Assembly (NCBI GenBank): GCA_042216675.1
Contig: JBDGTS010000022.1
Location: 1 to 13,823, forward strand
Direction of reading: 5' to 3'
From: Halobacteriaceae archaeon
GTDB lineage: Archaea > Halobacteriota > Halobacteria > Halobacteriales > Halobacteriaceae
DNA length: 13,823 nucleotides
Both the position numbers and the translations under genes were made by a program. Of this stretch, positions 3-13,823 are shown piece after piece (positions within the stretch are counted from its first letter, which is position 1; every line of letters begins with the position of its first letter). Under the pieces are notes generated by a model. It saw only the letters and a list, made by a program, of their open reading frames with translations. It was not told the DNA's origin and made no database searches.

Positions 3-1397
3 GGTGGCAGCGTCAACGAGACCGGGACGCTCCTCGTCGAGGTCACCGCGACCGGCGAGGACGCGTTCCTGAATCAGGTCGCTCACGAGATCGAGGAAGC
101 CCGCGCGATGAAGCCCGGAATCATTCAGCTTGCCGACCGCGTCCTCCGGTACTTCGTCCCGGCCGTCCTGACCATCGCGGCGCTAGCCTTCGCGTTCTGG
201 CTGGTCGCGCCGCTTGCGTGGGGTGCCGGCCCGAACGTCCAGCGCGGGGCGTTCGCCGCCTTGGCCGTCCTCGTCCTCGGGTACCCGTGTGCCCTCGGGA
301 TGGCGACGCCGCTGGCCCTAATTCGCGGCGGCGGGAAGGCCGCAAACCACGGCATTTTGATGCGGAGCGGCGACGCCTTCCAGATCTTCCCCGACGTCGA
401 CCGTATCGTGCTTGACAAGACCGGCACCATCACCGTCGGTGAGCCCGCCGTCAGCGAGATCGTCGCGCTCAACGGTGACGAGGACAACGTGCTGGCGATG
501 GCGGCGAGCGCGGAGGCGTTCTCGGAACACCCCCTCGCTGACGCTATTCTCGACCGCGCCGACGAGTGGGGTGTGGCGTACGCCGACCCCGAGGCGTTCG
601 ACTCCGTCACGGGCAAGGGCGTCCGGGCGACCGTGGACGGCGACGATGTACTGGTCGGCAAGCCGGGCTGGCTCGCGGACGAGGGCATCGACCTCTCTTA
701 TGTGGCCGAAGAGGTCGAGCGCCTCCAGCACCACGGCCTTACGGTCTCGGGCGTTGTCCGAGACGGCGACCTCGTGGGCCTGATCGGGATCGGCGACGAG
801 ATCAAGGCCGACGCCGCCGCGACCGTCCGACGAACGCACAACGCCGGGATCACGCCCGTGATGATCACCGGCGACAACGAGCGCACTGCGGAGGCGGTCG
901 CCGAGGAGGTGGGGATCGACCGCGTGATGGCCGACGTGCTGCCCGACGAGAAGCGCGAGGAGATCGGTCGCCTGCAGGACGAGGGCCATCGGGTGGCGAT
1001 GGTCGGTGACGGCATCAACGACGCGCCCGCGCTCACGCAGGCGGACATCGGCATCGCCATCGGGGCGGGAACGGACATCGCCATCGAGTCCGCCGACATC
1101 GTACTGATGGGCGAGCGACTCGGCGGCGTGATGGACGCCTACGAGATCGGCGAGGAGAGCTACCGGAAGACCCGCCAGAATCTCGGTGCGGCGTTCGCGT
1201 TCAACGGCATCGGCGTCGCAGCGGCGACGACAGGCCTCGTCCACCCGGTGTTCGCGATGATTGCGATGGTGCTGTCCGTGTCGTCGGTACTGGCCAACAG
1301 CTTCGCGGGGCAGTTGCTCTCGGGGGAGGGTGTCAACACGGAGTTCGCCGTGGAAGATGACAGAGAAACGGGAGTCGCCGAGACGCCGGCCGATTAG
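3..1397 (+). CDS. Heavy-metal translocating P1B-type ATPase (CopA-like), 5' truncated by window edge
   Basis: The frame is open from position 3 (GGSVNETGTLLVEVTATGEDAFLNQV..., actuator-domain end), so ATG 108 is internal. Motifs: YPCALGMATP, phosphorylation site DKTGT, SEHPL, TGKG, TGDN, MVGDGINDAPAL. Confidence 0.95.
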   Translation, partial: GGSVNETGTLLVEVTATGEDAFLNQVAHEIEEARAMKPGIIQLADRVLRYFVPAVLTIAALAFAFWLVAPLAWGAGPNVQRGAFAALAVLVLGYPCALGMATPLALIRGGGKAANHGILMRSGDAFQIFPDVDRIVLDKTGTITVGEPAVSEIVALNGDEDNVLAMAASAEAFSEHPLADAILDRADEWGVAYADPEAFDSVTGKGVRATVDGDDVLVGKPGWLADEGIDLSYVAEEVERLQHHGLTVSGVVRDGDLVGLIGIGDEIKADAAATVRRTHNAGITPVMITGDNERTAEAVAEEVGIDRVMADVLPDEKREEIGRLQDEGHRVAMVGDGINDAPALTQADIGIAIGAGTDIAIESADIVLMGERLGGVMDAYEIGEESYRKTRQNLGAAFAFNGIGVAAATTGLVHPVFAMIAMVLSVSSVLANSFAGQLLSGEGVNTEFAVEDDRETGVAETPAD

Positions 1398-1600
1398 GCC
1401 GTGACCTCGTAACCGGCCTGTTCGATCGCGGCGTGGATGTCGTCGTCGGTGACCGAGTCTCCGGCGACGACTTCGACGGTGTCAGCCTCGTGGTCGGCCT
1501 CCACGCGATTCACGCCGTCGAGGGTCTTGAGGGCGTTCGTGACGGTCTGTTCGCACCCGGTACACGACAGTCCCGTGACAGAGATCGTTTTTCGTTCCAT
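1394..1600 (-). CDS. copZ: Heavy-metal-associated (HMA) domain metallochaperone, CopZ-like, 68 aa
   Basis: MERKTISVTGLSCTGCEQTVTNAL...IEQAGYEV has the GxxCxxC motif and the C-terminal GY of HMA domains. The start is placed at ATG 1600 rather than 1648 because the domain begins there. Confidence 0.9.
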   Translation of the reverse strand: MERKTISVTGLSCTGCEQTVTNALKTLDGVNRVEADHEADTVEVVAGDSVTDDDIHAAIEQAGYEVTA

Positions 1601-1840
1601 ACGTGTCACTTGTGATGGCTGACCTAAGGCTATTACGATGGTTGTCATAGCGGGATGAGAATATCGGTATTGCAGTTAACCTCGTCATCTCCTTCACGGA
1701 CTATGGAAACCTCCTGCACAGATTTTGTCGCTCGCAATTACACTGGCGGGTCGCGGTACGGCTGACGCGGTCCCGAGACGGGGAGACTGTTCGGGGGCAC
1801 AATACTTTAGGCGGGACGAGTTGGATTTAATACACTTCCG

Positions 1841-2614
1841 ATGAGGGACGCCACCCCGGCGCGACTCGCCGCCGTCCTGTGTGTACTCGTCGGCGTTGCG
1901 CTCCTCCTGAGTTCGGCGTGGCTCGTCCCACACGCCGGGAAAGACGCGTGCCGCAACCGGGTCGAACGACAGACCCCCGACCCGGCGTTTCCCGCCGACG
2001 AGCACCTCGACTATTCGGCGCTGTCACCGGACGCGAGGGCCGTGTTCGACGCCGCCCGGCACTCGCCGGACGGCACTGTCACTGTCTACGGTGACGACTG
2101 CCCCGAACAGTTCAACTACTACGGCGACGTCGCCACCCACTACGCCATCGACCGCAACGACACGACGTATCGACTGGTGACCCGCGGGTCCGGATTCGCG
2201 GTGCTTCCGTGGTCGCTCGCGCTCAGTTGGGCACTGGCGCTCACCGGCCTCGCCGTGGGCGTCGTCGGTGTTCGGTCGGCGCGCGCCGGGCGCACGATGG
2301 CGCCGGCCCTCTTCGCCGGACTCGGAGCGCTCACGCTGGGGATAGCCGCCGTCAGTGCTTTCCCCGCAAAGCTCTGGATGGTCGCGGTGCTCGTGGCCGC
2401 GTGCTGTGGCGCGGGCGCCGTCAGCCGGCGGCGCCCCGCGCTGGTGACTGGGTCCCTCCTCGTCCCGGCGGCGACTGGCTGGTTCCTCCTCGTCGACGGA
2501 GGCGTCGGACCGCACACGGCAGTCTCGGCGAGGCTATTCGTCGGGGTTCTGGTGATACTCCCGCTGTTGGTCCGCATCGGTGCGGAAGCGAGTGCGGCCG
2601 TCAATCGAGAGTAG
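1841..2614 (+). CDS. Hypothetical membrane protein (N-terminal TM, ~90 aa soluble loop with two Cys, about 5 C-terminal TM segments)
   Basis: 257 aa ORF after an AT-rich gap, with hydrophobic segments. The loop DYSALSPDARAVFDAAR...CPEQF resembles a small domain I associate with uncharacterised haloarchaeal surface proteins. No function recognised. Confidence 0.7.
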   Translation: MRDATPARLAAVLCVLVGVALLLSSAWLVPHAGKDACRNRVERQTPDPAFPADEHLDYSALSPDARAVFDAARHSPDGTVTVYGDDCPEQFNYYGDVATHYAIDRNDTTYRLVTRGSGFAVLPWSLALSWALALTGLAVGVVGVRSARAGRTMAPALFAGLGALTLGIAAVSAFPAKLWMVAVLVAACCGAGAVSRRRPALVTGSLLVPAATGWFLLVDGGVGPHTAVSARLFVGVLVILPLLVRIGAEASAAVNRE

Positions 2615-2629
2615 CGTGCGTCGGGTGAG

Positions 2630-4576
2630 TCAGAGGCCCCAGAACACGGAGATGCCGCCGACGATGACCACCGAGAGGAGCAACTGGAGGGGCGCGCCGA
2701 TGCGCGTGTAGTCCGTGAACTTGTAGCCGCCGGGGCCGTAGACGAAGAGGTTCGTCTGGTAGCCGATGGGGCCGAGGAACGCCATCGACGCGGCGAACGT
2801 GACCGTCAGCACGAACGCGAAGGGGTTCGCGTCGATGCGCGTCGCCGCCTCGATGGCCACGGGAATCATCAACACGACGCTGGCGTTGTTCGAGATGACC
2901 TCCGTGATGAGGCCGGTGCCGATGTAGAACACCCACAGGACGCCGATGGTCGGCAACACCACCGAGGTGGCGGCCACGAGGGCACCCAGAATCTCGGCGC
3001 CGCCGGTCTGTTCGAGGGCCATCCCGAGCGGAATCACGCCCGCGAGCAGGAAGATGACGTCCCACTCGACGCCGTCGTACAGTTCGTTCGGCTTGATGAC
3101 GCCGGTGAGCACCATCGCGACGACCCCCGCGAGCGCGCTGACGAGGATGGGGAACTGGAGGCCGCCCAACACCGCCAGCGCGCCGATGCCGGTGGCGCCG
3201 ACGAGCAGGTCCGCGATGGCGTCGAAGGGGAGCGCCGCGAACGCGACGACGCCGGCCATGATGCCCGCCGCGTGGGGAATCTTCTCAGTGCGGTAGTCCG
3301 GAGACTCTGGCTCGTGGGCGACGATGAAGTCGTCGTTGCGCGAGAGGCGGTCGATGCTGTCGGGCGGCGCCTGAATCAGGAGCGTGTCGCCCACGCGGAT
3401 ACGGCGCCTGTCGAGTCGCTCCCGAATCGTCTCCCCGCGGGACCGGAACGCCAGCACCGTCGCGTCGTAGCGCTGGCGGAACGTCGAACTCCGGAGCGTC
3501 TCCCCGACGAGGTGCGACCCGCGAGGGACGACGACTTCCACCAGCGTCTGCTCGTCGATGCGGTCCGGTTCGAGTTCCGACTCCTCCGTCGGGTGGCCCG
3601 CCATCGTCAGCGTCTCCTGTTCGGCGAGGCGTTCGAGCGTCTCGCGGTTCGCGCGCAGTCGCAACACGTCGTCGGCCTGAATCTGCTTGTTGCCGATTGG
3701 TTCGATGAACTCCTCGCCGTCACGGACCACCTGCACGATGTCGGCGTCGAACTCGCTCCCGTCGATGGCCGCCTCGACGGTGTTGCCGACGAAGTGCGAG
3801 TCCTCGTCGACGACGACTTCAGTGAGGTACTCCTCGATGGCGTACTCGCCGATGTAATCCTCTTCGGCGGGGATGCGCTCGGGGAGGAGCCGGTGTCCCA
3901 CGAAGTAGAGGTACGCGCTCCCGACGACGAGGACGATGACGCCGAGTTTCGTGAACTCGAACATCGAGAAGGGGTGCCCCAGCAGGCGTCCCGACACGTC
4001 GCTCGCGAGGATGTTCGTCGAGGTGCCGATGAGCGTCAGCATCCCGCCGAGCATCGAGGCGTAGGAGAGCGGAATCAGGAGCTTCGACGGCGAGGTGTTG
4101 CCCTTGTGCGCCAAGTCGCTGATGACGGGGACGAGGACGGCCACGACGGGCGTGTTGTTCACGAACCCCGAGATTGGGCCCGCGACGCCGATGGTGGCGA
4201 GCAACTGCCTGTCGAGGCTGTCGCCAGCGAACGCGGCCATCTTCCGGCCGAGTATCTGGACGATGCCCGTCCGGCTGATGCCGGAACTGAGGATGAGCAT
4301 CGCCAGCACTGTGACGGTCGCGGGCGAGGAGAACCCGGAGATGCCCTCCGCGGTGGAGATGTGCGTGTAGTTGACGACGCCGTCCGAGCCAAAGACCATC
4401 AACAGCACCATCACGAGAATGGCCGTGACGTCGACGGGGAGCCACTCGGTGACGAACAGCACCAGTGCGACGAGGATGACACAGAAGACGGCGATCACGT
4501 CGGTCGTCACCGGCGGGATGGCGCCGGTCTGGCTCAGCGTCGTCGCGAGGACGTCGGAGAGATGCTGTGGGGTCAT
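2630..4576 (-). CDS. SLC13/DASS-family permease with two TrkA-C (RCK_C) domains (anion/di-tricarboxylate transporter)
   Basis: 648 aa. Motifs SGFVNNTPVV, LLIPLSYASMLGGMLTLIGTSTN, EVISNNAS and PIGYQTNLFVYGPGGYKFTDY. The central hydrophilic region has two EVVV..S..VG.T repeats typical of TrkA-C. Confidence 0.92.
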   Translation of the reverse strand: MTPQHLSDVLATTLSQTGAIPPVTTDVIAVFCVILVALVLFVTEWLPVDVTAILVMVLLMVFGSDGVVNYTHISTAEGISGFSSPATVTVLAMLILSSGISRTGIVQILGRKMAAFAGDSLDRQLLATIGVAGPISGFVNNTPVVAVLVPVISDLAHKGNTSPSKLLIPLSYASMLGGMLTLIGTSTNILASDVSGRLLGHPFSMFEFTKLGVIVLVVGSAYLYFVGHRLLPERIPAEEDYIGEYAIEEYLTEVVVDEDSHFVGNTVEAAIDGSEFDADIVQVVRDGEEFIEPIGNKQIQADDVLRLRANRETLERLAEQETLTMAGHPTEESELEPDRIDEQTLVEVVVPRGSHLVGETLRSSTFRQRYDATVLAFRSRGETIRERLDRRRIRVGDTLLIQAPPDSIDRLSRNDDFIVAHEPESPDYRTEKIPHAAGIMAGVVAFAALPFDAIADLLVGATGIGALAVLGGLQFPILVSALAGVVAMVLTGVIKPNELYDGVEWDVIFLLAGVIPLGMALEQTGGAEILGALVAATSVVLPTIGVLWVFYIGTGLITEVISNNASVVLMIPVAIEAATRIDANPFAFVLTVTFAASMAFLGPIGYQTNLFVYGPGGYKFTDYTRIGAPLQLLLSVVIVGGISVFWGL

Positions 4577-4726
4577 CGGTCAGTCGGCGCCGAGATGTCG
4601 CTGTGGGTGCCAGTCGGGAGGGAGTGATAAAAGCGCGGTGGAGTGCCGCGACTATAGAGGGCTCCGGAGGCCTCGGGTGCCCTCATAGTAACCGATTACA
4701 GGGGACGGCGACACCCTCCGCGTGGA

Positions 4727-5392
4727 ATGACTGAGACGGAACCGCCGGCGTTCGCCACGCGGGTCGCGACGCTCTCGGAGCGGTATCTCGAAGCGGTGCT
4801 CGGATGCGTTCGCGCCCTGCGGACGGGTATCGACGACTACCTCGCGGGCGAGGCATTCGACGCGGCCGCGAGTCGAGTGGCTGCACTCGAAGGTGACTGT
4901 GACGACGCACTTCGGGACGTGCGGGAAGCAGTCGTCGGGATGCCCCCGTCGTTCTCGAACCTGTATCTCCGGCCGGGCGAGGCGGTGACGTTCTTCGACC
5001 GGGCCGACGAAATCGCGAACCGCGCGGAGGCGCTCGCGGACGACGTTCGGGTGATGGAGCCGTCGCTCGGCCCCGTGGACGGCAACGTCTCCGTCATCGC
5101 CGAGGAGATCGTGGCGATGACGGAGACGCTCTCGGAGGCCGCGGCGCTCCACTTCGCGGACCCCACCGGCCCCGGCGCGGCTGAGGAGATTCGACCGCTC
5201 GTCGGCGAGATTCGGGAGCGCGAGCGGCGCTGTGATCGGGAGCGCGAGGCCGCTCTCGAAGCGGTCTTCGCCGACGGTCCCACCGCGGCGGCGCTGGCGA
5301 CCCGAGAGGTGATCGTCGCGCTCGACGGCGTGGCCGACGCCGTCGAGGACGCCGCTGACCACCTCATCTACGTCGAGCAGGTGGCGCGCTGA
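4727..5392 (+). CDS. DUF47 / PhoU-like phosphate transport regulator family protein
   Basis: 221 aa helical acidic protein with repeated LEGDCD / ERRCD and DEIANRAE / DGVADAVEDAAD patterns characteristic of DUF47. Confidence 0.75.
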   Translation: MTETEPPAFATRVATLSERYLEAVLGCVRALRTGIDDYLAGEAFDAAASRVAALEGDCDDALRDVREAVVGMPPSFSNLYLRPGEAVTFFDRADEIANRAEALADDVRVMEPSLGPVDGNVSVIAEEIVAMTETLSEAAALHFADPTGPGAAEEIRPLVGEIRERERRCDREREAALEAVFADGPTAAALATREVIVALDGVADAVEDAADHLIYVEQVAR

Positions 5393-5410
5393 GCCGGAAC
5401 GGCAGTCTTT

Positions 5411-5424
5411 TTAGGCCAACCTAA
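5411..5424. promoter_or_regulatory. Palindromic operator TTAGGCCAACCTAA (DtxR/SirR/MntR-type box), copy 1
   Basis: TTAGG-N4-CCTAA with perfect 5-bp arms, upstream of the GT75 gene. The motif recurs four times, only in intergenic gaps. Confidence 0.85.
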
Positions 5425-5436
5425 TCGCCAGTCTTT

Positions 5437-5450
5437 TTAGGTTGCCCTAA
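5437..5450. promoter_or_regulatory. Palindromic operator TTAGGTTGCCCTAA, copy 2, overlapping putative TATA element TTTTTA (5434-5439)
   Basis: TTAGG-N4-CCTAA at -31..-18 from ATG 5468. Confidence 0.85.
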
Positions 5451-5467
5451 AGAATGTGGGGCAACCG

Positions 5468-6628
5468 ATGACAGACATCTGCGTCGTGGTTCCGACGGTC
5501 AGGAACCCGGACTGCGTCCGCGAGTACGCCGAGAACGCGCGCCGCCACGGCTTCGACACCGACCGCCTCCACGTCGTTCTCGTGACCGAGGACTTCTGTG
5601 ACGCCGACGCTATGCGGGAGATGCTCGCCGACGAGGGGCTCTCCGGTCGCGTCTTCGACGGCGAGGCGCGCACGGCGTGGTTCGAGGAACAGGGCCTCGC
5701 CGACTACGACCACCTCGTGCCGGCGGCGAGTCACGCCCAGACGAGTTTCGGCCTGCTCTACATGTGGGCCGGCGACTACGAGTACGGCGTCTTCATCGAC
5801 GACGACACCGCGCCTCACGCCGAGGACGACTTCTTCGGGACGCACATGGCGAACCTCGCCTACGAGGGCGACGTCGAGACGGTGCGCTCCGACGAGCAGT
5901 GGGTCAACGTCCTCTACCAGACGGACACGGACCTCTACCCGCGGGGCTACCCCTACGCGGCGATGGACGAGACGGTGGAGACGGAGTCAGGACACGTCGA
6001 GAGCGTCGTCGCGTCGCAGGGCCTCTGGACGAACGTTCCGGACCTCGACGCCGTGCGCATCCTGATGGACGGCGACCTGCAGGGACAGGCGGAGACGCGC
6101 CTCGACCGCGACGACTTCGGCCCGGACTTCGTCGCCGACAGGGGGCAGTATCTCACCGTCTGCTCGATGAACCTCGCGTTCCGCCGCGAGGTCATCCCCG
6201 CGTTCTACCAACTGCCGATGGACGACAACGAGTGGGAGGTGGGCCGTTTCGACGACATCTGGTCGGGCGTGTTCCTCAAGCGGGCAGCCGACGTCGTGGG
6301 CGACCAGATTCTCACGGGCGGCCCCCTCTGTGAGCACAACAAGGCGCCGCGCTCCACCTTCGACGACCTGCACAACGAGGTGGCGGGCCTCGAACTCAAC
6401 GAACACCTCTGGGAAGTCGTCGACGACGTGGACCCCGACGTGTCCGGGTCCGGCGCGGACGCCTACGCCACCGTCTTCCGCGCGATGGCCGACGCACTCG
6501 CCGAAGGCGACTGGGCCGAGTACACCAACGGCGCCTTCTTCACCCACGTCGGCGAGTACATGCACGACTGGCTGGACTGTCTGGACGCCATCGGGGCGCG
6601 GCGCCCCGCCCCCGTCGCCGACGACTGA
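5468..6628 (+). CDS. GT75 / reversibly glycosylated polypeptide (RGP, UDP-arabinopyranose mutase-like; often annotated alpha-1,4-glucan-protein synthase)
   Basis: Motifs FIDDD, RGYP, SQGLWTNVPDLDA, CSMNLAFRRE and GRFDDIWSG parallel plant RGP motifs (TIDDD, RGYP, SHGLWLNIPDYDA, CGMNLAFDRE, GRYDDMWAG, recalled from memory). ATG 5468 is preferred over GTG 5456. Confidence 0.88.
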   Translation: MTDICVVVPTVRNPDCVREYAENARRHGFDTDRLHVVLVTEDFCDADAMREMLADEGLSGRVFDGEARTAWFEEQGLADYDHLVPAASHAQTSFGLLYMWAGDYEYGVFIDDDTAPHAEDDFFGTHMANLAYEGDVETVRSDEQWVNVLYQTDTDLYPRGYPYAAMDETVETESGHVESVVASQGLWTNVPDLDAVRILMDGDLQGQAETRLDRDDFGPDFVADRGQYLTVCSMNLAFRREVIPAFYQLPMDDNEWEVGRFDDIWSGVFLKRAADVVGDQILTGGPLCEHNKAPRSTFDDLHNEVAGLELNEHLWEVVDDVDPDVSGSGADAYATVFRAMADALAEGDWAEYTNGAFFTHVGEYMHDWLDCLDAIGARRPAPVADD

Positions 6629-6647
6629 ATCGGTGCCTTTTTGGGTT

Positions 6648-6661
6648 TTAGGCCGACCTAA
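6648..6661. promoter_or_regulatory. Palindromic operator TTAGGCCGACCTAA, copy 3
   Basis: Lies in the 40-bp gap between the GT75 stop and ATG 6669 (-21..-8), downstream of a T-run at 6638-6642 (candidate TATA element or terminator). Confidence 0.85.
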
Positions 6662-6668
6662 TCCAAAT

Positions 6669-7826
6669 ATGACTCAGGACTCCGCGTTCGGACGACGCGC
6701 GCTCCTCCGCACCGTCGGTGCCGGCGCCGTCGCCGGACTGGCTGGCTGCTCCATTCCGGGAACCAACGGCGGCGGGGACGGCGCGGCCGACATCCCCTCA
6801 CTGACGAACTTCCGTGGCTCCGGGCCGCTGGCGTCCGGGCGTCCCCAACCCGGTGGCACTTCCATCGAGGAGTTGCCGGCGCTGGAGGGCGAACTCAACC
6901 TCGCCATCGGCGGCGGCGAGGGCGGCATCTACTCGAACTTCGTCGACCAGCTCCAGCAGATCTACCCCGACTTCACGGTGTACACGAACTCCGGCGCCTC
7001 CTCGTCGTTGGCCCAGACGCTCGTACAGGAGGTCGAGGCAGGCCAACCGTCGGCGGACGTGTTCTGGTCCATCGACGCCGGCTCGCTGGCCTACGTGACG
7101 AACCACGACGCGTACGCGTCGCTGTCGAGTGACGTGACTGAGCCCGTGCCCGCGGAGTTCCACGGCGAGGAGGACTCGTGGGTCGGCGTCACCGGTCGGG
7201 CGCGAGCGGTACCGTACAACACGAACAAACTCAGCGCGTCGGACATCCCCGACAAGGTACAGGAGTTCCCCGAGACGGCGGCCCTACAGGGAACGATGGG
7301 CTGGGCGCCAACCTACGGGGCGTTCAAGTCCTTCGTCACGGCGATGCGCCTCCTCCGCGGGCCGGAGCAGACCAAGCAGTGGCTCGTCGATATGAGGAAG
7401 GCCGGCACCAAGCGGTTCCCCAACGAGTACGTCGTGTCGAGTCAGGTCGCCGACGGTGCGCTGGCGGCTGGCTTCGCCAACCACTACTACGCCATGCGCG
7501 TGAAGAACCGCCGCCCCGACGCGCCCATCGACCTCGCGTTCACGACGGGCGACGCGGGCGCACTCGTCAACGTCGCCGGCACGCTGATCCCCCGTGGGTC
7601 GGGCAAGCAGGACCTCGCGGAGCTGTTCATCCGCCACCTGCTCTCCGCGGAGGCACAGGAGTTCTTCGCCACCGTGAGCTTCGCCTACCCGATGATCGAA
7701 GGCGTCGACCCGGTGGCCGGCCTGCCGCCGGTGACGGAACTCAATCCGCCGGAAATCGACCTCTCGAAGCTCTCCGACATCCAGCCGACCCTCGAGTTGA
7801 TGCGTGAGGCCGGCGTGGAGGGATGA
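6669..7826 (+). CDS. Fe3+-type ABC transporter substrate-binding lipoprotein (FbpA/FutA/SfuA-like), Tat-exported
   Basis: True start at ATG 6669: MTQDSAFGRRALLRTVGAGAVAGLAGC (twin-arginine plus lipobox). Family motifs ADVFWS.DAG, WVGVTGRAR..YN, FVTAM and NHYY (tandem Tyr iron ligands, 7479-7490). Confidence 0.9.
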   Translation: MTQDSAFGRRALLRTVGAGAVAGLAGCSIPGTNGGGDGAADIPSLTNFRGSGPLASGRPQPGGTSIEELPALEGELNLAIGGGEGGIYSNFVDQLQQIYPDFTVYTNSGASSSLAQTLVQEVEAGQPSADVFWSIDAGSLAYVTNHDAYASLSSDVTEPVPAEFHGEEDSWVGVTGRARAVPYNTNKLSASDIPDKVQEFPETAALQGTMGWAPTYGAFKSFVTAMRLLRGPEQTKQWLVDMRKAGTKRFPNEYVVSSQVADGALAAGFANHYYAMRVKNRRPDAPIDLAFTTGDAGALVNVAGTLIPRGSGKQDLAELFIRHLLSAEAQEFFATVSFAYPMIEGVDPVAGLPPVTELNPPEIDLSKLSDIQPTLELMREAGVEG

Positions 7827-9421
7827 GTTCCGAGGGGCGATTGCAGTCCCTGCTCGCACGGGTCGTGAGCCGTGACACCGTCCTCACCGTCGTCGCGGCC
7901 CTCATCGCGGCGTCGATGCTGGTGCCGCTCGCGTGGCTCTTCGTCGACGCCCGTGACATCGGCGCCCGCGCGTTCGAGTTGCTCCTCGCGCCAACGACGC
8001 TCCGCGTTCTCGGCCGGAGCGTCGCCCTCGTCGCCGTCGTCACCGCCGCGACCGTGGTACTCGGGGTGTCGCTCGCCGTCCTCACCGTGCAGACGGACCT
8101 CCCGTTCCGCCGCTTCTGGACCGTCGTGACGGCGCTTCCGCTGGTCATCCCGAGCTACCTCGGTGCGTTCGCGGCGCTGTCGGCGTTCGGCCGCGGTGGT
8201 CTCCTCTCGGAACTGCTCGGAACGACGGTGCCGCCCCTCACCGGCTTCACCGGGACAGCGGTGGTGATGACGCTCTACACGTACCCGTACGTCTACCTCA
8301 CCACCAGAGCCTCGCTGCTGTCGCTCGACGCCTCGCTCGTCCGGGCCGCGCGGAGTCTCGACGCGACGCGCCGGGAGGCGTTCCGCCGCGTGACCCTGCC
8401 ACAGATCACGCCCGGCATCGCGGCGGGGGCGCTCCTCGTGGCGCTCTACACGCTCTCTGACTTCGGGACGCCGAACTTCATGCGCCTGCAGGTGTTCACG
8501 CAGTTCATCTACGCCCGCTACGTCCACGCGACGGACTACGCGGTGGTGTTGTCGCTCGAACTCATCGCCGTCACCGCGGGCATCATCTTGCTCCAGTCCC
8601 GCATCGGCGCGGACCGGTCGGGGGCGTACGCCAGCGGCGGTCAGCGGGGCGCGACCAAACTCTCGCTCGGCAAGTGGCGCTACCCCGCGATGGCGCTCCC
8701 GGCGGCGGTGGCGACGGCGGCCCTCGTGGCGCCGCTGACCATCTTCTGTCTCCTCCTGTTTCGGGAGGACGCCGGCTACGTCTCCGAGCCGTCGTTCGCG
8801 TGGTCGTACGCCGTCGACTCGGTGACCGTCTCCCTGCTGGCGGCCGTCGCCGCCGTCCTCGTGGCGCTCCCCATCGCGTTGCAGGCGGCGCAAAGCGACT
8901 CTCGGCTGGCATGGCTGGCGGACCGGGCGGCGTACGTCGGCTTCGCCGTGCCGGGCATCGTGTTGGGCATCGCACTGGTGAGTTTCGGCCTCGACGTCCT
9001 CCCGTGGCTCCACAAGACGCTCCCCATCCTCATCTTCGCCTACGTCGTGCGCTTCATGCCGCAGGCGCTTGGCTCGATTCGGACCTCGATTCTGCAGGTG
9101 GACCGGAACCTCGTCGCCGCCGCCCGGACGCTCGGGAAGTCGCCGGCGGCGGCGTTCAGATCGGTGACGCTCCCGCTCATCGCGCCGGGGATGGCGACGG
9201 GGGCGGCGCTCGTCTTCCTCACGACGATGAAGGAACTGCCGGCGACGCTCATCCTCCAGCCGTACGGCTTCAAGACGCTCGTCCTCTACATCTGGGAGGT
9301 TCGTGAGGCGGGCCTCTACGGCCGCGCGGCGGTGCCGGCGCTGGTGTTGGTGTTCGTCTCGGCGCTGTCGATGGCCGTCATCCTGCTGAGCGAGACGAGC
9401 GGCGACACCGGAGGGAAGTGA
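7823..9421 (+). CDS. Fe3+-type ABC transporter permease (FbpB/SfuB-like, two fused BPD_transp_1 domains)
   Basis: 532 aa polytopic protein with two EAA-like loops (LVRAARSLDA...FRRVTLP; LVAAARTLGKS...FRSVTLP), plus LSDFGTP and MKELPATLIL. ATGA overlap with the upstream gene. Confidence 0.92.
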   Translation: MSSEGRLQSLLARVVSRDTVLTVVAALIAASMLVPLAWLFVDARDIGARAFELLLAPTTLRVLGRSVALVAVVTAATVVLGVSLAVLTVQTDLPFRRFWTVVTALPLVIPSYLGAFAALSAFGRGGLLSELLGTTVPPLTGFTGTAVVMTLYTYPYVYLTTRASLLSLDASLVRAARSLDATRREAFRRVTLPQITPGIAAGALLVALYTLSDFGTPNFMRLQVFTQFIYARYVHATDYAVVLSLELIAVTAGIILLQSRIGADRSGAYASGGQRGATKLSLGKWRYPAMALPAAVATAALVAPLTIFCLLLFREDAGYVSEPSFAWSYAVDSVTVSLLAAVAAVLVALPIALQAAQSDSRLAWLADRAAYVGFAVPGIVLGIALVSFGLDVLPWLHKTLPILIFAYVVRFMPQALGSIRTSILQVDRNLVAAARTLGKSPAAAFRSVTLPLIAPGMATGAALVFLTTMKELPATLILQPYGFKTLVLYIWEVREAGLYGRAAVPALVLVFVSALSMAVILLSETSGDTGGK

Positions 9422-11427
9422 TGCGCCGACGCACGGCCCGCGCCCTCGCCGTCGCCCTCGCGCTGACGGGTGCGCTCGTCGTCCTCCTCGTGGCGTCGCG
9501 GCTGTTCCCCTACCACTCGCTCAACCACGACGAGGGGGTGTATCTCCGGCAGGCCGCGCTGCTCCGAAACGGGCAGTTCTCCCTGTATCCGCCCGTGGAG
9601 GACGTGTTCCGGCCGTGGTTCTTCGTCGAGGACGGCGACCGACTGTACCCCAAGTACGCGCCCGTGCCGGCGGCGATGTTCGCCGTCGGGCAGGCGTTCG
9701 GCGCCGCGCGCCTCGTCCTCGCGGGCATCGGCGGGGGTATCGTCGCGCTGACGGTCCGCGTCGTCGGGTCGGCGTTCGACCGCGAGACGGGTCTGCTGGC
9801 CGGCGTCGCGATGCTCGCCTCGCCGCTGTTCCTGCTCACGACTTCGGTGTTCCTCCCGTACGCGCCCACGGCGGTGCTGAATCTCGCGTTCGCGGCGGTG
9901 TACTTCCGCGCCGACCGAACCGGCGACCCGCGGTGGGCCGCCGTCGCGGGCGTCGCCGTCGGCCTCGCGTTCTTCGCGCGACCCTACACGGCCGTCCTGT
10001 TCGCGCTGCCGTTCATCGCGCACGCCGTCTGGACGCTGTGGCGCGATTTCTGTGGGGCGCTCCCGCGGCAGGCGCTCACGGCCGCGGGTGGGTTGCTCGG
10101 CGTCGCGTCGACGCTCGCGTACAACGCCGTGGTCACCGGGTCCCCGTGGCTGTTCCCGTACGCGGCGTTCGCACCGCTGGACGGCCTCGGGTTCGGTGAG
10201 CGCCGCCTCCTCGGCCACACCGTCGACTACACGCCGACGCTGGCGCTCCGGGTCAACGCCGAGGTGCTGGAGGTGTTCGCCACGGACTGGGTGGCCGGAG
10301 GCGCCCTCGGCGCTCTCCTCGCGGCCGTCGGCCTCGCCGCGGCAGTTCGGCGTGGCCTGACCCCGAAACAGGCGGTACTGGCCGGCCTCTTCGTGACGAT
10401 TCCGCTCGGCAACGTCTACTTCTGGGGCAACTACAACATCCTCGGCGTCGTCGGCGTGCCGGGCGACGGTCTCGTGGCGTACCTCGGGCCGTACTACCAC
10501 TTCGACCTCTTGCTCCCGACGGCGGCGTTCGCCGCGCGCGGCGCCGTCGCGGTGACGCGGGCCGCCCGCGAACTCGCAGAGCGGTCGCCGGACCCTCGCC
10601 GCGCCCGCGCCGTCGCGGCCATCGTGCTTCTCGTCGGCGCGGCGGCGTTCGGCGCCGCCACCGTCGGAGCCATCGACGCCCCGGCCGACCGGAACGCCGA
10701 GGTGACGGAGACGTACCGGACGGCGTACGAACCGTTCGAGTCGGGGCCGCCCGCGAACTCGCTCGTCTTCCTCCCCTCGACGTACGGGCCGTGGCTCGGC
10801 CACCCGTTCCAGTCGCTCCGCAACGACCCGGGCTTCGACGGCGACGTGGTGTACGCCCTCGACGACCGGCCCTTCGCCACGGCCGCGGCGTTCCCGAACC
10901 GGACGCTGTACCGCTACGGCTATCGGGGCGTCTGGAACCCGGCCGCCGGGTCGCCGACGGCGGCGCGCCTCCAAGCCGTCGAGCGAGTGCGCGGGGAGCG
11001 CGTCGGCTACACGGCGGCGCTCGGCGTCCCGAACGGCGTACAGGGCGTCACCCTCCGCCTCGGCTCAGAGGAGAGAGCGGCGTACCGGACCCTCGGGCCC
11101 GTCTCGAACCTCTCCGTGGCGGTGACGGTGGCGAACGGGACGGCCACGCTGACGGGCGACGGGGTGGACCCCGTGACGATTCCGGTCGACGACAGGGACG
11201 AGGTCGGTCTGACTGTGTTCCTCGACTACGGGCCGGGCGGCAGTTTCAGTTACGGCCTCGAACTGCCTGTCGAGCGGACGGCGGGCGGCGTGCAGGCGCT
11301 CACCCCCCGCGTCGAGTACTGCCGCGCGGCGGCCACCTGTGGCGGCGCGGCGACGTACGTGCCCGCGTCGGCGCCCCCCGGCGTCTCAGTCACCGTCGAC
11401 GCGTTCGCCGCGGAGCAGAACGCCTAA
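9421..11427 (+). CDS. GT-C fold membrane glycosyltransferase (ArnT/PMT-like) with C-terminal extracytoplasmic domain
   Basis: One N-terminal TM followed by an acidic DE motif (SLNHDEGVY), about 10 further TM segments including GLAFFARPY, and a ~250 aa soluble C-terminus with a Cys pair. TGATG overlap with the permease stop, GGAGG just upstream. Alternative start GTG 9418. Confidence 0.8.
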   Translation: MRRRTARALAVALALTGALVVLLVASRLFPYHSLNHDEGVYLRQAALLRNGQFSLYPPVEDVFRPWFFVEDGDRLYPKYAPVPAAMFAVGQAFGAARLVLAGIGGGIVALTVRVVGSAFDRETGLLAGVAMLASPLFLLTTSVFLPYAPTAVLNLAFAAVYFRADRTGDPRWAAVAGVAVGLAFFARPYTAVLFALPFIAHAVWTLWRDFCGALPRQALTAAGGLLGVASTLAYNAVVTGSPWLFPYAAFAPLDGLGFGERRLLGHTVDYTPTLALRVNAEVLEVFATDWVAGGALGALLAAVGLAAAVRRGLTPKQAVLAGLFVTIPLGNVYFWGNYNILGVVGVPGDGLVAYLGPYYHFDLLLPTAAFAARGAVAVTRAARELAERSPDPRRARAVAAIVLLVGAAAFGAATVGAIDAPADRNAEVTETYRTAYEPFESGPPANSLVFLPSTYGPWLGHPFQSLRNDPGFDGDVVYALDDRPFATAAAFPNRTLYRYGYRGVWNPAAGSPTAARLQAVERVRGERVGYTAALGVPNGVQGVTLRLGSEERAAYRTLGPVSNLSVAVTVANGTATLTGDGVDPVTIPVDDRDEVGLTVFLDYGPGGSFSYGLELPVERTAGGVQALTPRVEYCRAAATCGGAATYVPASAPPGVSVTVDAFAAEQNA

Positions 11428-11429
11428 GT

Positions 11430-11443
11430 TTAGGTTTGCCTAA
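11430..11443. promoter_or_regulatory. Palindromic operator TTAGGTTTGCCTAA, copy 4
   Basis: Fills the 27-bp gap between the GT-C stop and ATG 11455 (-25..-12). Confidence 0.85.
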
Positions 11444-11454
11444 TCCCGTTCCGA

Positions 11455-11979
11455 ATGCGCCTCACTCGCCGTGACGCCGTCGTCGCCCTCGCCAGCGCCG
11501 GCGTCGCCGTGACCGCGGGCGCGACGCTCGACCCGCCGACGGCCGCGGATGGGCCGATCGGCGAGCGCGAGACGGACGCGCTCGTCGCCGCCGCGGAGGT
11601 GGTGTATCCCAGCGACGTCACCGAGACCCGACAGTTCGTCGAACGATACGTCGGCCGGCGGGCGGAGGAGCGCCCGGACTGGGCCGCGGGCGTCGCCGAC
11701 GCCGTCTCGTACCTCGACGAGTACACGCGGTCGTGGCGGGACGCCCCGTTCGCGGCGCTCGACCCGGCCGCGCGCGACGATGTTCTGCGCTCGATGGGCG
11801 TCGACGCCGCGACCCCGAACCCCGACGGCACCGACACCGAGCGCGTGCGCTACTACGTCGTGAACGACCTGCTGTACGCGCTCTACTCCTCGCCGACTGG
11901 CGGGCGCCTCGTCGGCATCGAGAACCCGCAGGGCCACCCCGGCGGCACCGCGTCGTATCAGCGCGGGGCGGAGCGATGA
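11455..11979 (+). CDS. Gluconate 2-dehydrogenase subunit 3-like small subunit with Tat signal
   Basis: MRLTRRDAVVALASAG twin-arginine leader. Motifs LVAAAEVVYP, FAALDPAARDDVL and ALYSSP.G...G are typical of this family. Translationally coupled to a GMC enzyme. Confidence 0.82.
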   Translation: MRLTRRDAVVALASAGVAVTAGATLDPPTAADGPIGERETDALVAAAEVVYPSDVTETRQFVERYVGRRAEERPDWAAGVADAVSYLDEYTRSWRDAPFAALDPAARDDVLRSMGVDAATPNPDGTDTERVRYYVVNDLLYALYSSPTGGRLVGIENPQGHPGGTASYQRGAER

Positions 11980-13559
11980 CCCGGGCACCCTCGCCGCGGG
12001 CGGACGTCTGCGTCGTCGGTGCCGGCCCCGCGGGCGCCCTCGTGGCCGAGAGACTCGCGCGCGCCGGGCAAGACGTGGTGGTGTTGGAGGCTGGCCCCCG
12101 ATTCGACCCGGAGCGCCGTCTGGAGCGGATGGAGCGCTCGATTCGGCCGGCGAGCAACCCCCTCTCCGTCTGGGAGATGGGCGGCCCGCGCGACGCCTAC
12201 TCGTCGACGGGGAGTCGGCACTATCCGCTCAACCGCGCCCGCGTGAAGGGCGTCGGCGGGTCCTCGCTCCACTGGCAGGGCATGGTGATGCGTCTCCACG
12301 AGTCGGACTTCGCGTCGGCGACCAGACGGGGCCGCGGCGCCGACTGGCCCATCGACTACGACGACGTGCGGCCCTACTACGCCGCCGCCGAGGACGCACT
12401 CGGCGTCGCCGGGGCGTCTGACAACCCCTTCGCGCCGCCGCGCGAGGAGCCACACCCCATGCCCGCGTTCCCGCCCTCCCACAGCGACGGCATCTTCGCG
12501 GCGGCCTGCGAGGAACTGGGCATCGTCACCCACTCGGTGCCGAACGCGCGCAACTCCGAACCGTACGACGGCGAGAGCGCCTGCGTCGGCTACGGCACCT
12601 GTCAGCCGGTGTGTCCCTCCGGCGCGAAGTACGACGCGACGCGCCACGTCGAGAGCGCCGAGGACGCGGGCGCCCGCGTCGTCGACGAGGTGCCGGTCCA
12701 GCGACTCGTCCACGACGACGCCGGCGAGCGAGTCGTCGCCGCCGAGTACGTCACCCCTGAGGGCGAGACGCACAGACAGGAGGCCCGCCAGTTCTTCCTC
12801 GCTGCCGGCGGCGTCGAGACGCCGCGCCTCCTCCTCCTCTCGCAGTCCGAGCAGTACCCCGACGGCCTCGCGAACTCCTCGGGCGCGGTGGGGCGGTACT
12901 TCCACGACCACCTGTTCGCGGGCGTCGGCGGCACCGTGGACGAGGCCACCCGGCAGAACCACGTCGGGTTCAACACCTCCGAGTCCCACCAGTTCTACGA
13001 CGACGACGGCGTCGGCAAGATAAAACTGGAGTTTCTGAACTACGCCGGCCCCTCGCCCGTCGAGATGGCCCTCGGCGCCGACGAGTGGGGCGACGACCTG
13101 CGCGACTCGATTCAGGACGCCTACGGGTCGCACCTCGCCGTCGGTGCCCTCGTGGAGCAGTTGCCCCGCGCAGAGAACCGCGTGACGCTCTCCTCGTCAC
13201 GGACGGACGCTCACGGGAACCCCGCGCCGGAGATTCAGTGGTCGCTGAGCGACTACGAGCGACGGACGATTCGCCGGGCGAACGCGATTCAACGGGAGAT
13301 TCTCGACGCCGTGGGGGCGGAGATTCGGTGGACCGTCGGTCCCGATTCGACGGGACCGGCGTTCCACCACATGGGCACGACGCGGATGGGCACCGACCCC
13401 GACTCGTCGGTGGTCGACCCGCGCCTGCGGACCCACGACCTCGACAATCTCACGATTCCGTCGTCGTCGGTGTTCGCCACCGGTGGGGCCATGAACCCGA
13501 CGCTCACCATCGCCGCACTCGCGTTGAAGGCCGCCGACCACCTCGCCGCGGACCTATAG
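11976..13559 (+). CDS. GMC-family FAD oxidoreductase (sugar/glycoside dehydrogenase large subunit)
   Basis: Start at ATG 11976 (ATGA overlap). FAD motif VVGAGPAG, then VGGSSLHW, WPIDYDDVRPYY, CVGYGTCQPVC, ETPRLLL.S, catalytic HHMGT and NPTLTI.ALA. Confidence 0.93.
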   Translation: MTRAPSPRADVCVVGAGPAGALVAERLARAGQDVVVLEAGPRFDPERRLERMERSIRPASNPLSVWEMGGPRDAYSSTGSRHYPLNRARVKGVGGSSLHWQGMVMRLHESDFASATRRGRGADWPIDYDDVRPYYAAAEDALGVAGASDNPFAPPREEPHPMPAFPPSHSDGIFAAACEELGIVTHSVPNARNSEPYDGESACVGYGTCQPVCPSGAKYDATRHVESAEDAGARVVDEVPVQRLVHDDAGERVVAAEYVTPEGETHRQEARQFFLAAGGVETPRLLLLSQSEQYPDGLANSSGAVGRYFHDHLFAGVGGTVDEATRQNHVGFNTSESHQFYDDDGVGKIKLEFLNYAGPSPVEMALGADEWGDDLRDSIQDAYGSHLAVGALVEQLPRAENRVTLSSSRTDAHGNPAPEIQWSLSDYERRTIRRANAIQREILDAVGAEIRWTVGPDSTGPAFHHMGTTRMGTDPDSSVVDPRLRTHDLDNLTIPSSSVFATGGAMNPTLTIAALALKAADHLAADL

Positions 13560-13823
13560 AGAGACGCCGAGTCGCTCCTCGACGCCGACCTTGAGGATGG
13601 AGTAGGCGATTTCCGCGCCGCCCTCGATGGGGTCGAGTTTCGTCTCGCCGAGTCGCTCGCCGTAGCGAATCGGCTCCTCCCGCACGTCGTAGCCGCGGGC
13701 GACGGGGCGCATCAGCAGTTCGGCCGAGAGGCCGGTGTTCTCCGTCCACTCGACGTCCGCGAGCATCGACTTCCGATAGGCGCGCATCCCCGTCGTGGTG
13801 TCGTGAACTCGCTCCCCGAGGAG
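13554..13823 (-). CDS. GT2 dolichyl-phosphate hexose transferase-like glycosyltransferase, C-terminal part (5' end outside window)
   Basis: The frame is open from the window end: LLGERVHDTTTGMRAYRKS...WTENTGLSAELL...REEPIRYGERLGETKL. The D...G.R.Y and E.PI.Y..R.G.TK pattern matches DPM1-like polyprenyl-phosphate glycosyltransferases. Confidence 0.8.
   Translation of the reverse strand, partial: LLGERVHDTTTGMRAYRKSMLADVEWTENTGLSAELLMRPVARGYDVREEPIRYGERLGETKLDPIEGGAEIAYSILKVGVEERLGVSL

Follow-up and report, generated by a model that had tools for sequence, protein, structure and literature searches.

The window analysed here, a stretch of 13,823 nucleotides on contig JBDGTS010000022.1 of a Halobacteriaceae archaeon (assembly GCA_042216675.1), carries a cluster that brings together genes for a predicted ferric-iron ATP-binding cassette (ABC) importer, for glycosyltransferases (GTs) of lipid-linked glycosylation and for an exported sugar dehydrogenase, punctuated by predicted operators of the iron repressor TroR. 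We propose that it represents one copy of a cluster conserved across the Halobacteria that belongs to the TroR regulon and in which glycosylation serves iron uptake, a reading to which we assign a probability of roughly 0.55. Its regulation and linkage are well supported, and are partly already in print in supplements.

The cluster comprises six co-oriented genes and, convergent with them, the end of a gene resembling dolichyl-phosphate (Dol-P) hexose transferases. Gene calls and family models agree with this outline, which had been drawn in an earlier note made from the sequence; likewise, the family assignments of that note (GT75, FbpA, permease, GT-C, the GMC pair and GT2) are upheld by Pfam/NCBIfam, PDB and fold matches. 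The genes, with lengths in amino acids (aa), and the operators, the latter called by motif fit and without strand, are as follows; Tat stands for twin-arginine translocation and RR for its paired arginines:

5400-5450, unstranded: tandem TroR-type operators (5411-5424, 5437-5450) upstream of GT75
5468-6628, plus strand: GT75/RGP-family protein, 386 aa (Pfam PF03214, E 9.7e-15)
6648-6661, unstranded: TroR-type operator, its end 7 bp from the binding-protein start codon
6669-7826, plus strand: FbpA-type solute-binding lipoprotein, 385 aa (Tat RR motif and lipobox Cys)
7823-9421, plus strand: fused double permease of the FbpB type, 532 aa (two BPD_transp_1 stretches)
9421-11427, plus strand: GT-C glycosyltransferase with DUF7846, 668 aa (PMT_2 at 27.0 bits, cut-off 26.1; DUF7846 at E 1.4e-46)
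11430-11443, unstranded: TroR-type operator, its end 11 bp from the small-subunit start codon
11455-11979, plus strand: Gluconate_2-dh3 small Tat subunit, 174 aa (PF13618 at 27.5 bits, cut-off 23.4; RR motif)
11976-13559, plus strand: GMC FAD dehydrogenase, 527 aa (Pfam GMC_oxred_N and GMC_oxred_C)
13554-13823, minus strand: GT2 Dol-P hexose transferase, its C-terminal 89 aa (NF041391, E 6.7e-42)

The junctions are either translational overlaps or short gaps bearing a palindrome, as the earlier note had it, and each can be read directly in the sequence. The binding-protein stop and the permease start overlap in an ATGA at 7823-7826; the permease stop and the GT-C start have base 9421 in common (TGATG); and the small-subunit and GMC genes again overlap in an ATGA (11976-11979). 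The two gaps, of 40 bp between GT75 and the binding protein (6629-6668) and of 27 bp between GT-C and the small subunit (11428-11454), each contain a palindrome. At the far end, the convergent GMC and GT2 stops directly adjoin (CTATAG, 13554-13559), with zero intergenic bases and no room for a terminator. The base composition of the window is 63-75% G+C, and the closest relatives of its proteins are exclusively haloarchaeal, the nearest named ones being about 77% identical.

The palindrome, TTAGGNNNNCCTAA, occurs four times in exact form, always between genes and each time with a T directly 5' of it. A search allowing one mismatch returned 4 matches, all exact, against an expectation of 0.01, and at least 4 were reached in 0 of 200 shuffles; since 4 are seen where 0.01 are expected, chance is ruled out as their source. 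The pair upstream of GT75 is embedded in a 25-nt direct repeat with a spacing of 26 bp, the second box ending 17 bp before the ATG. Together the four sites (TTTAGGC-CAA-CCTAA, TTTAGGT-TGC-CCTAAAG, TTTAGGC-CGA-CCTAA and TTTAGGT-TTG-CCTAA) lie 7-57 bp upstream of start codons, their ends 7-43 bp before the starts, and serve three transcription units: GT75 by itself; the binding protein, permease and GT-C; and the small subunit and GMC. A metal repressor had been suggested in the earlier note as the factor behind the palindrome common to the gaps, and the palindrome indeed fits the published box of TroR, a DtxR-family protein presented in a 2023 paper as the main iron repressor of Haloferax volcanii (PMC10783522). 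That paper gives the motif as TTTAGGC-NNN-CCTAAAANAN, derived from 32 chromatin immunoprecipitation sequencing (ChIP-seq) peaks, and reports that mutating both of two tandem boxes about 30 bp apart abolished the iron-dependent repression of a reporter in H. volcanii (PMC10783522). All four window sites conform to the semi-palindrome TTTAGGC-NNN-CCTAA(AA), and they also share with TroR operators their placement in promoter regions and the occurrence of a tandem copy. Very short leaders are common in haloarchaeal mRNAs; hence, the operators are expected to overlap core promoters, and their placement is consistent with repression by occlusion. By analogy with the H. volcanii counterparts, TroR would bind these sites in the window organism and repress the adjoining units in an iron-dependent manner.

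The earlier note had made its proposal hang on synteny in other genomes, and the arrangement is indeed present in many haloarchaeal genera, in several layouts and with the operator kept. In a scan of one genome per species, 424 genomes had a relative of GT75; the best 80 loci, labelled L001 to L080, were examined together with flanks of up to 10 kb each, comparing the window proteins by tblastn. This sample is weighted toward the closest relatives, yet spans many genera. For the 71 of these 80 loci whose sequence continues downstream of GT75 for 9 kb or more, the counts are:

binding-protein gene directly beside GT75: 70 of 71 loci
GT-C gene present: 70 of 71
permease gene present: 65 of 71
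GT2 gene present: 57 of 71
small-subunit gene present: 54 of 71
GMC gene present: 28 of 71
all six genes present: 27 of 71

These loci fall into 12 distinct gene layouts. The most frequent (21 loci) has GT75, the binding protein, the permease, a gap of about 1.1 kb, GT-C, the small subunit and a convergent GT2, with GMC absent. The second (16 loci) begins with GT75, the binding protein and GT-C, continues with GT2, GMC and the small subunit on the opposite strand and ends with the permease, so that the glycosylation and dehydrogenase genes sit between the two halves of the transporter. In the RefSeq annotation of a Salarchaeum plasmid all eight genes stand in one row, with the ATPase included.

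The operators are conserved along with the genes. Counting a box when it lay within -200 to +30 of a start with at most 1 mismatch, we obtained the following:

upstream of GT75: 78 of 80 loci
upstream of the binding protein: 68 of 78
in the GT2 promoter region: 56 of 57
upstream of the small subunit: 33 of 56
upstream of the permease, where it heads its own unit: 15 of 70
upstream of GT-C: 0 of 74
upstream of GMC: 0 of 29

In 18 of 80 loci there are two boxes upstream of GT75, and boxes in the related loci lie 0-60 bp from start codons. The zero counts for GT-C and GMC act as internal controls for the box search; at the same time, as neither has a box of its own, GT-C would always be read from a binding-protein or transporter promoter and GMC from that of the small subunit. 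The convergent GT2 presumably has an operator of its own, located beyond the window; one is seen in 56 of the 57 related loci. TroR-like boxes also occur outside the cluster spans in the flanks of L001-L080 (84 in 844 kb, far above chance); with boxes so frequent in the flanks, further TroR-controlled genes tend to be nearby.

Metal regulation of the cluster genes, as proposed in the earlier note, finds support in H. volcanii, where their apparent counterparts are in or near the TroR regulon by ChIP-seq and RNA sequencing (supplement of PMC10783522). According to that supplement, TroR peaks lie at HVO_1293, the HVO_1613 promoter, HVO_1704 and HVO_1705. HVO_1293 encodes a Tat-signal protein and immediately precedes the GMC oxidoreductase gene HVO_1294; by annotation HVO_1613 is a GT2 and HVO_1705 an iron ABC binding protein, and HVO_1704 bears the arCOG label 'Reversibly glycosylated polypeptide family protein'. 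In the troR mutant as compared with the parent, HVO_1704 changes by log2 +1.57 and HVO_1613 by +1.21, both being members of the 26-gene 'high-confidence regulon', while HVO_1708 (annotated as glycosyltransferase family 39) and HVO_1294 change by +1.42 and +1.30, respectively (PMC10783522). The gene order HVO_1704-1705-1706-1707-1708 parallels that of the window, with an extra gene at the position occupied by the ATPase in other genomes, and HVO_1704 and HVO_1705 have lengths of 385 and 388 aa, as against 386 and 385 aa in the window. Thus, the likeness to the TroR regulon of H. volcanii extends over the same operator, the tandem boxes about 26-30 bp apart and their position before iron ABC transporter genes, and over apparent GT75, GT2, GT-C and GMC counterparts that are bound and/or derepressed in the troR mutant; the difference is that the window has in one block what H. 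volcanii has at three loci (PMC10783522). The six counterpart proteins are also listed, as raw intensities, in the supplement of an iron-starvation proteome (PMC11349517), and HVO_1705 has been used as a model lipoprotein in published work.

Turning to the individual components, the transporter is recognizably of the FbpABC/HitABC/SfuABC kind. The binding protein matched 37 PDB sequences at E <= 0.01, with 7w3w as the best (E 1.8e-48), followed by the Thermus protein, HitA, and the Neisseria and Haemophilus FbpA proteins; all 37 are named iron-binding except YfuA, sfuA, 6g7n and 3c9h, the last two carrying generic solute-binding names. Its 'HYY' aligns with the 'NYY' of 7w3w, and the aligned Tyr-Tyr pair may be the iron-liganding tyrosines. 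The permease has the expected fused double form, with both BPD_transp_1 stretches within a single protein, and its homologue on plasmid pJOR178 is annotated in RefSeq as an iron ABC permease. As for the ATPase, the permease-GT-C gap exceeds 800 bp in 45 of 50 related loci, measuring about 1.1 kb or more, and open reading frames (ORFs) with Walker A and LSGG motifs were found in 40 of these 45 gaps; on these motifs, a gap of about 1.1 kb or more is predicted to hold the ABC ATPase gene. In L017 (16853-17908) and L063 (16886-17944) it is relocated behind the small-subunit gene, and it is not in the examined stretch of L026, L048, L058 or the window, where the permease and GT-C join at 9418-9424.

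The system thus shares with the bacterial importers a binding protein matching the solved FbpA family, a fused double permease and, in 45 of 50 related loci, an ATPase gene. It differs from them in that the window binding protein is a Tat-exported archaeal lipoprotein with a conserved N-terminal extension, that the window is without an ATPase gene and that glycosyltransferase genes lie inside the operon. An RR motif and a lipobox Cys are present in 74 of the 78 binding-protein homologues of the loci. The extension of these lipoproteins comprises some 35-40 residues (about residues 45-82, window 6800-6915) with a consensus of roughly FRGSGP..R..GGTSIE-LPDL-GEL. Flanked by a variable linker rich in Gly, Asp and Ser on one side and by the FbpA fold on the other, it is not covered by the alignments to the solved bacterial FbpA proteins, and it could be a docking or modification site.

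The GT75 protein is conserved at 71-89% identity across haloarchaeal genera (the 120 best of 1731 homologues, all of them haloarchaeal). Against PDB profiles it is closest to MtdL, a bacterial mutase that interconverts the pyranose and furanose forms of a GDP-sugar (7xpr/7yua, E 2.4e-27), with the plant uridine diphosphate (UDP)-arabinopyranose mutase 8cid at merely 1.3e-5. D111-D113 (the DDD motif), R159 and H290 are invariant in 22 sequences and align with MtdL D109-D111, R159 and H287; the equivalents of MtdL D195, S228, R257 and D260 are retained as well. In common with MtdL/Hyg20 and the plant UDP-arabinopyranose mutases, GT75 keeps the Mn2+-binding DDD, the His and the catalytic Arg159, together with equivalents of Asp192, Arg260 and Asp263; its iron-regulon context stands in contrast to the antibiotic or cell-wall synthesis of those enzymes. 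A 'hypothetical' protein of a Planctomyces plasmid (NZ_CP011275.1, 75059-75847) shares 31% identity with the haloarchaeal GT75 across 74% of its length, and the family thereby extends into bacteria beyond actinomycete antibiotic clusters.

For GT-C, a sequence search against PDB chains gave nothing meaningful. Its AlphaFold model (mean predicted local distance difference test, pLDDT, 84.5; predicted template modelling score, pTM, 0.84) gave 29 Foldseek matches at E <= 1e-3, and all among the matches listed are GT-C enzymes. The strong ones, with template modelling (TM) scores of 0.36-0.45, include oligosaccharyltransferases (OSTs; AglB, STT3, PglB), ArnT, ALG9/12, Emb/Aft and Pmt4, and no GT-C subfamily prevails among them; the fold is completed by a C-terminal beta-sandwich (DUF7846). 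In GT-C enzymes the first loop after the first transmembrane helix carries the catalytic acids, and here an Asn-x-Asp-Glu in that loop (N35, D37, E38) is invariant in 24 sequences. The homologue on pJOR178 is annotated in RefSeq as GT39. Two Haloarcula genomes carry paralogous GT-C pairs (L017, 14031-16043 and 17908-19923; L063, 14055-16076 and 17944-19959), which are about 57-59% and 47-50% identical to the window GT-C. The GT2 fragment matches model positions 130-213 of NF041391 with 142.9 bits over the 89 aa that fall in the window (the cut-off of 375 applies to the full length), and the positional homologue on pJOR178 is annotated as a dolichyl-phosphate hexose transferase.

Two known systems offer themselves for comparison with this pair. 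In actinobacteria, Ppm1 (GT2) and Pmt (GT39, GT-C) O-mannosylate secreted lipoproteins such as PstS. The likeness lies in a DPM1-like GT2 and a GT-C acting in series, with a lipoprotein, here the binding protein, as candidate acceptor. However, the window GT-C matches PMT_2 at threshold, and its fold resembles Pmt no more than it does OST or ArnT, Pmt4 ranking 25th and Pmt1-Pmt2 44th, behind OST and ArnT, with TM scores of about 0.26-0.36; further, the actinobacterial system is not known to include iron regulation, a GT75 mutase or a dehydrogenase. In enterobacteria, lipid A is modified by ArnC/ArnT under the Fe3+-sensing PmrAB. There too a GT2 loads polyprenyl phosphate, a GT-C makes the transfer and expression responds to iron, and ArnT is among the top fold matches. 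The regulation is opposite, as Arn is induced by high Fe3+ whereas the window cluster would be derepressed by low iron; moreover, archaea are without lipid A, and the cluster has no genes for aminoarabinose synthesis.

The dehydrogenase pair recalls the glucose dehydrogenase of Burkholderia and the fructose dehydrogenase of Gluconobacter. Over near full length, GMC matches 8hdd/6a2u_B (glucose dehydrogenase, E 1e-92) and 7w2j (the large subunit of fructose dehydrogenase, E 3e-81). It has no signal peptide, the FAD-binding GxGxxG standing directly at its N-terminus, and it contains a C-x5-C-x3-C-P stretch with a weak Fer4_7 match (E 0.004), a candidate 3Fe-4S site whose spacing is that reported for the Burkholderia enzyme. 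In such glucose and fructose dehydrogenases a small Tat subunit escorts the large one out; in the cluster the RR motif of the small subunit is invariant in 19 sequences, and the corresponding pJOR178 protein bears the annotation 'gluconate 2-dehydrogenase subunit 3 family protein'. Thus, the likeness to the two bacterial enzymes consists in large-subunit homology and in an RR-bearing small-subunit gene that overlaps the large-subunit gene; the differences are that the cluster has no gene for a cytochrome c subunit and that 26 of 71 loci have the small subunit but not the large one. No cytochrome domain was found in the 11 window proteins or in the annotated cluster of pJOR178. A model of the small subunit (pLDDT 80.3) found no PDB fold match below E 0.8, and a sequence search against PDB chains gave nothing meaningful. 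Small subunits of six loci (L010, L041, L043, L055, L076 and L078) have a lipobox-like AGC after the twin-arginine signal, unlike the window copy, and on this motif may be lipid-anchored. GMC is never seen without an adjoining small subunit, while the small subunit follows GT-C in 26 loci that lack GMC; given these loci, the small subunit may have a role beyond escorting GMC. A complex prediction of GT-C with the mature small subunit, run without controls, scored 0.00 against a mark of 0.32. A search for fused forms of the small subunit yielded two longer proteins (477 and 482 aa), which contain neither a GT-C nor a GMC domain and amount to weak evidence. Haloarcula-type genomes carry the small subunit at the locus but lack GMC there; no member of the genus is among the 120 best GMC homologues, and there was no Haloarcula plasmid match.

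Briefly, we envisage the following mechanism. When iron is replete, TroR on its operators would lower the transcription of the three window units and of GT2; when iron is scarce these units would be derepressed, as the H. volcanii data suggest. Judging by their families, the FbpA lipoprotein and the fused permease would import Fe3+ with an ATPase encoded elsewhere; GT75 would interconvert nucleoside diphosphate (NDP)-pyranose and NDP-furanose; GT2 would load a hexose onto dolichyl phosphate; and GT-C would transfer the Dol-P sugar on the outer face of the membrane. In parallel, the small subunit would take the cofactor-loaded GMC out via Tat, and the exported enzyme would oxidise a sugar or glycoside, passing electrons to an acceptor outside. 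The remaining steps are guesses. The glycosylation module might modify an exported component of iron uptake, the likeliest being the binding lipoprotein from the same transcription unit or an envelope molecule close by, because in every layout the transcription of GT-C is bound up with that of the binding-protein gene; and the dehydrogenase might reduce Fe(III) or produce a chelating sugar acid and so help to mobilise iron. The production of an iron-sulfur enzyme under iron scarcity would be easier to understand if the enzyme repays in iron.

These steps can be tightened into a form of glycan-dependent archaeal iron acquisition, which we offer tentatively and consider rather unlikely in its entirety. 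Under iron starvation the cell would produce a furanose-containing or otherwise special Dol-P-sugar; GT-C would place this sugar on the ferric-binding lipoprotein, or on a surface lipid or protein; and the FAD/iron-sulfur dehydrogenase would draw electrons from it, reducing and releasing environmental Fe(III). Alternatively, the sugar would be converted to a chelating acid from which the FbpA homologue receives Fe3+. The weakest point of the scheme is the step from GT75 to GT2, since we know of no precedent for a GT2 that loads a furanose onto Dol-P.

That step is one of several points that weigh against a cluster in which glycosylation serves iron uptake. At the level of the proteins, MtdL D87 is replaced by an invariant His89 and Q229 by an invariant Met234 in GT75. 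Both belong to the sugar-site residues shown to be essential in MtdL (D87, D195, S228, Q229, R257 and D260), and mutation of either abolished or nearly abolished its activity (PMC9937993). Given the His and the Met at these positions, which set it apart from MtdL/Hyg20, GT75 is probably an NDP-sugar enzyme of the MtdL kind with a different substrate or altered chemistry. Moreover, tblastn found no ABC ATPase gene in the window, GMC is absent in 43 of the 71 loci, and in 26 the small subunit occurs without GMC within 10 kb (e.g., L003, L006, L013, L022, L029 and L034).

On the side of H. volcanii, the orthology is an apparent one, based on annotation, length and gene order, and the counterparts lie at three separate loci (PMC10783522), so the genes need not be physically clustered. 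Despite its ChIP peak, HVO_1705 falls outside the high-confidence regulon, and the troR mutant shows modest derepression, of 1.2-1.6 log2. When the parent is compared in -Fe versus +Fe, HVO_1706 changes by -0.90 (padj 0.10) and HVO_1707 by -0.91 (padj 0.057), two slight decreases that lose significance on correction, and HVO_1708 by just +0.97 (all from PMC10783522 and its supplement). Further, the H. volcanii glycoproteome paper does not name HVO_1705 as a glycoprotein in its main text.

The main alternative is that the modules are co-regulated but separate. TroR would then run an iron importer together with an independent module for envelope remodelling or general Dol-P-hexose supply and a sugar dehydrogenase; the glycosylation genes would alter the surface under low iron or supply general glycosylation, and the clustering would reflect shared regulation. 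We regard this as possible, if on the unlikely side. It would accommodate the three loci in H. volcanii, the patchiness of GMC (28 of 71 loci) and the operators that GT2 and GMC each have at the head of their own units, which make a position in the cluster unnecessary. It is also favoured by a preprint that places HVO_1708, a further count against a role in iron uptake, at midcell and reports its pull-down with a division protein, pointing therefore to envelope growth rather than iron; HHpred in that preprint identifies HVO_1708 as a lipid A-modifying glycosyltransferase. HVO_1613 receives passing mentions in the literature, in which a general role is assumed for it. However, a mere sharing of regulation sits poorly with GT-C, which has none of its own operators in 74 loci and always follows binding-protein or transporter genes, including 16 loci where it comes after the binding-protein gene with the permease elsewhere, and with GT75, which adjoins the binding-protein gene in 70 of the 71 loci. 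Shared regulation alone hardly accounts for an association that persists through 12 rearranged layouts, because TroR boxes also work at dispersed loci.

The transporter might instead import a solute other than iron, such as an oxidised sugar that the dehydrogenase produces outside the cell, another metal or a phosphonate- or thiamine-like compound, with the whole forming a sugar-salvage or nutrient system under TroR. Pointing this way, NCBIfam models give the binding protein weak matches, far below cut-off, to phnS2 phosphonate (32 bits versus 393) and thiamine sfuA-subfamily binding proteins. We nevertheless think this very improbable, as its PDB matches are ferric-iron binding proteins bar 6g7n and 3c9h, with the Tyr-Tyr pair aligned, the RefSeq permease homologue is annotated as an iron ABC permease, and the counterpart of the binding protein in H. 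volcanii carries an iron-binding annotation as well as a peak of the iron regulator. Finally, a chance neighbourhood of unrelated genes, with random palindromes or generic promoter elements, is refuted by the palindrome excess (4 versus 0.01 expected), the synteny in 70 of 71 loci and the conservation of the operators across genera, to which the ChIP-seq peaks at the counterparts may be added.

The remainder of the window, upstream of the cluster, contains the following:

within 3-5392: partial heavy-metal P1B-type ATPase
1841-2614: membrane protein without a family
2630-4576, minus strand: CitMHS/DASS transporter with two TrkA_C domains
4727-5392: weak PhoU_div protein

We considered these genes as members of the cluster and rejected them, since the related loci contain nothing comparable except, in L058, a distant match to the ATPase; as they are not conserved beside it, the cluster begins at the GT75 promoter. 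On the Salarchaeum plasmid (L081, 5718-9950) a manganese transporter and a P-type ATPase also lie directly upstream of GT75. The long antisense ORFs of the window were likewise set aside as the usual open frames of high-GC DNA, and no tRNA or Rfam family was detected within it.

The operator, the regulator and every protein family of the cluster are already known. The earlier note had stated that no described pathway combines these components: no account of the cluster as a conserved unit, or of the functional proposal, was found in a literature whose coverage was thin for subscription journals, and in this respect the statement stands; it does not hold for regulon membership as such, as GT75 and GT2 appear in a supplementary table of PMC10783522. 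The main text of that paper, which treats siderophore, transporter and storage genes, leaves the glycosylation and dehydrogenase genes unmentioned, as do the main texts of two earlier Halobacterium papers, and no paper treating the genes jointly was found under the six H. volcanii gene identifiers.

Iron is scarce in oxic brines, and haloarchaeal iron uptake beyond siderophores is poorly understood. Against this backdrop, the cluster presents a ferric-iron ABC importer locked, class-wide, to lipid-linked glycosylation and an exported sugar dehydrogenase, with all three predicted to answer to the main iron repressor. A functional link would amount to a new principle, in which surface sugars aid the acquisition of metals; it would also provide a genetically tractable handle on the archaeal O-glycosylation pathway (HVO_1704-1708, HVO_1613 and HVO_1293/1294) and assign a role to GT75, a haloarchaeal protein without known function. 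Two papers have termed that pathway elusive or enigmatic. Should glycan-dependent acquisition prove true, GT2 and GT-C would be the first identified components of this 'elusive' archaeal O- or lipid-glycosylation pathway, and the conserved pair, with a candidate acceptor next door, renders the question of archaeal glycosylation testable. Even if the modules are independent, the conserved core of the TroR regulon would be widened beyond transport and storage. Taken together, the cluster suggests a possible connection between surface sugars and the acquisition of iron in salt-loving archaea.

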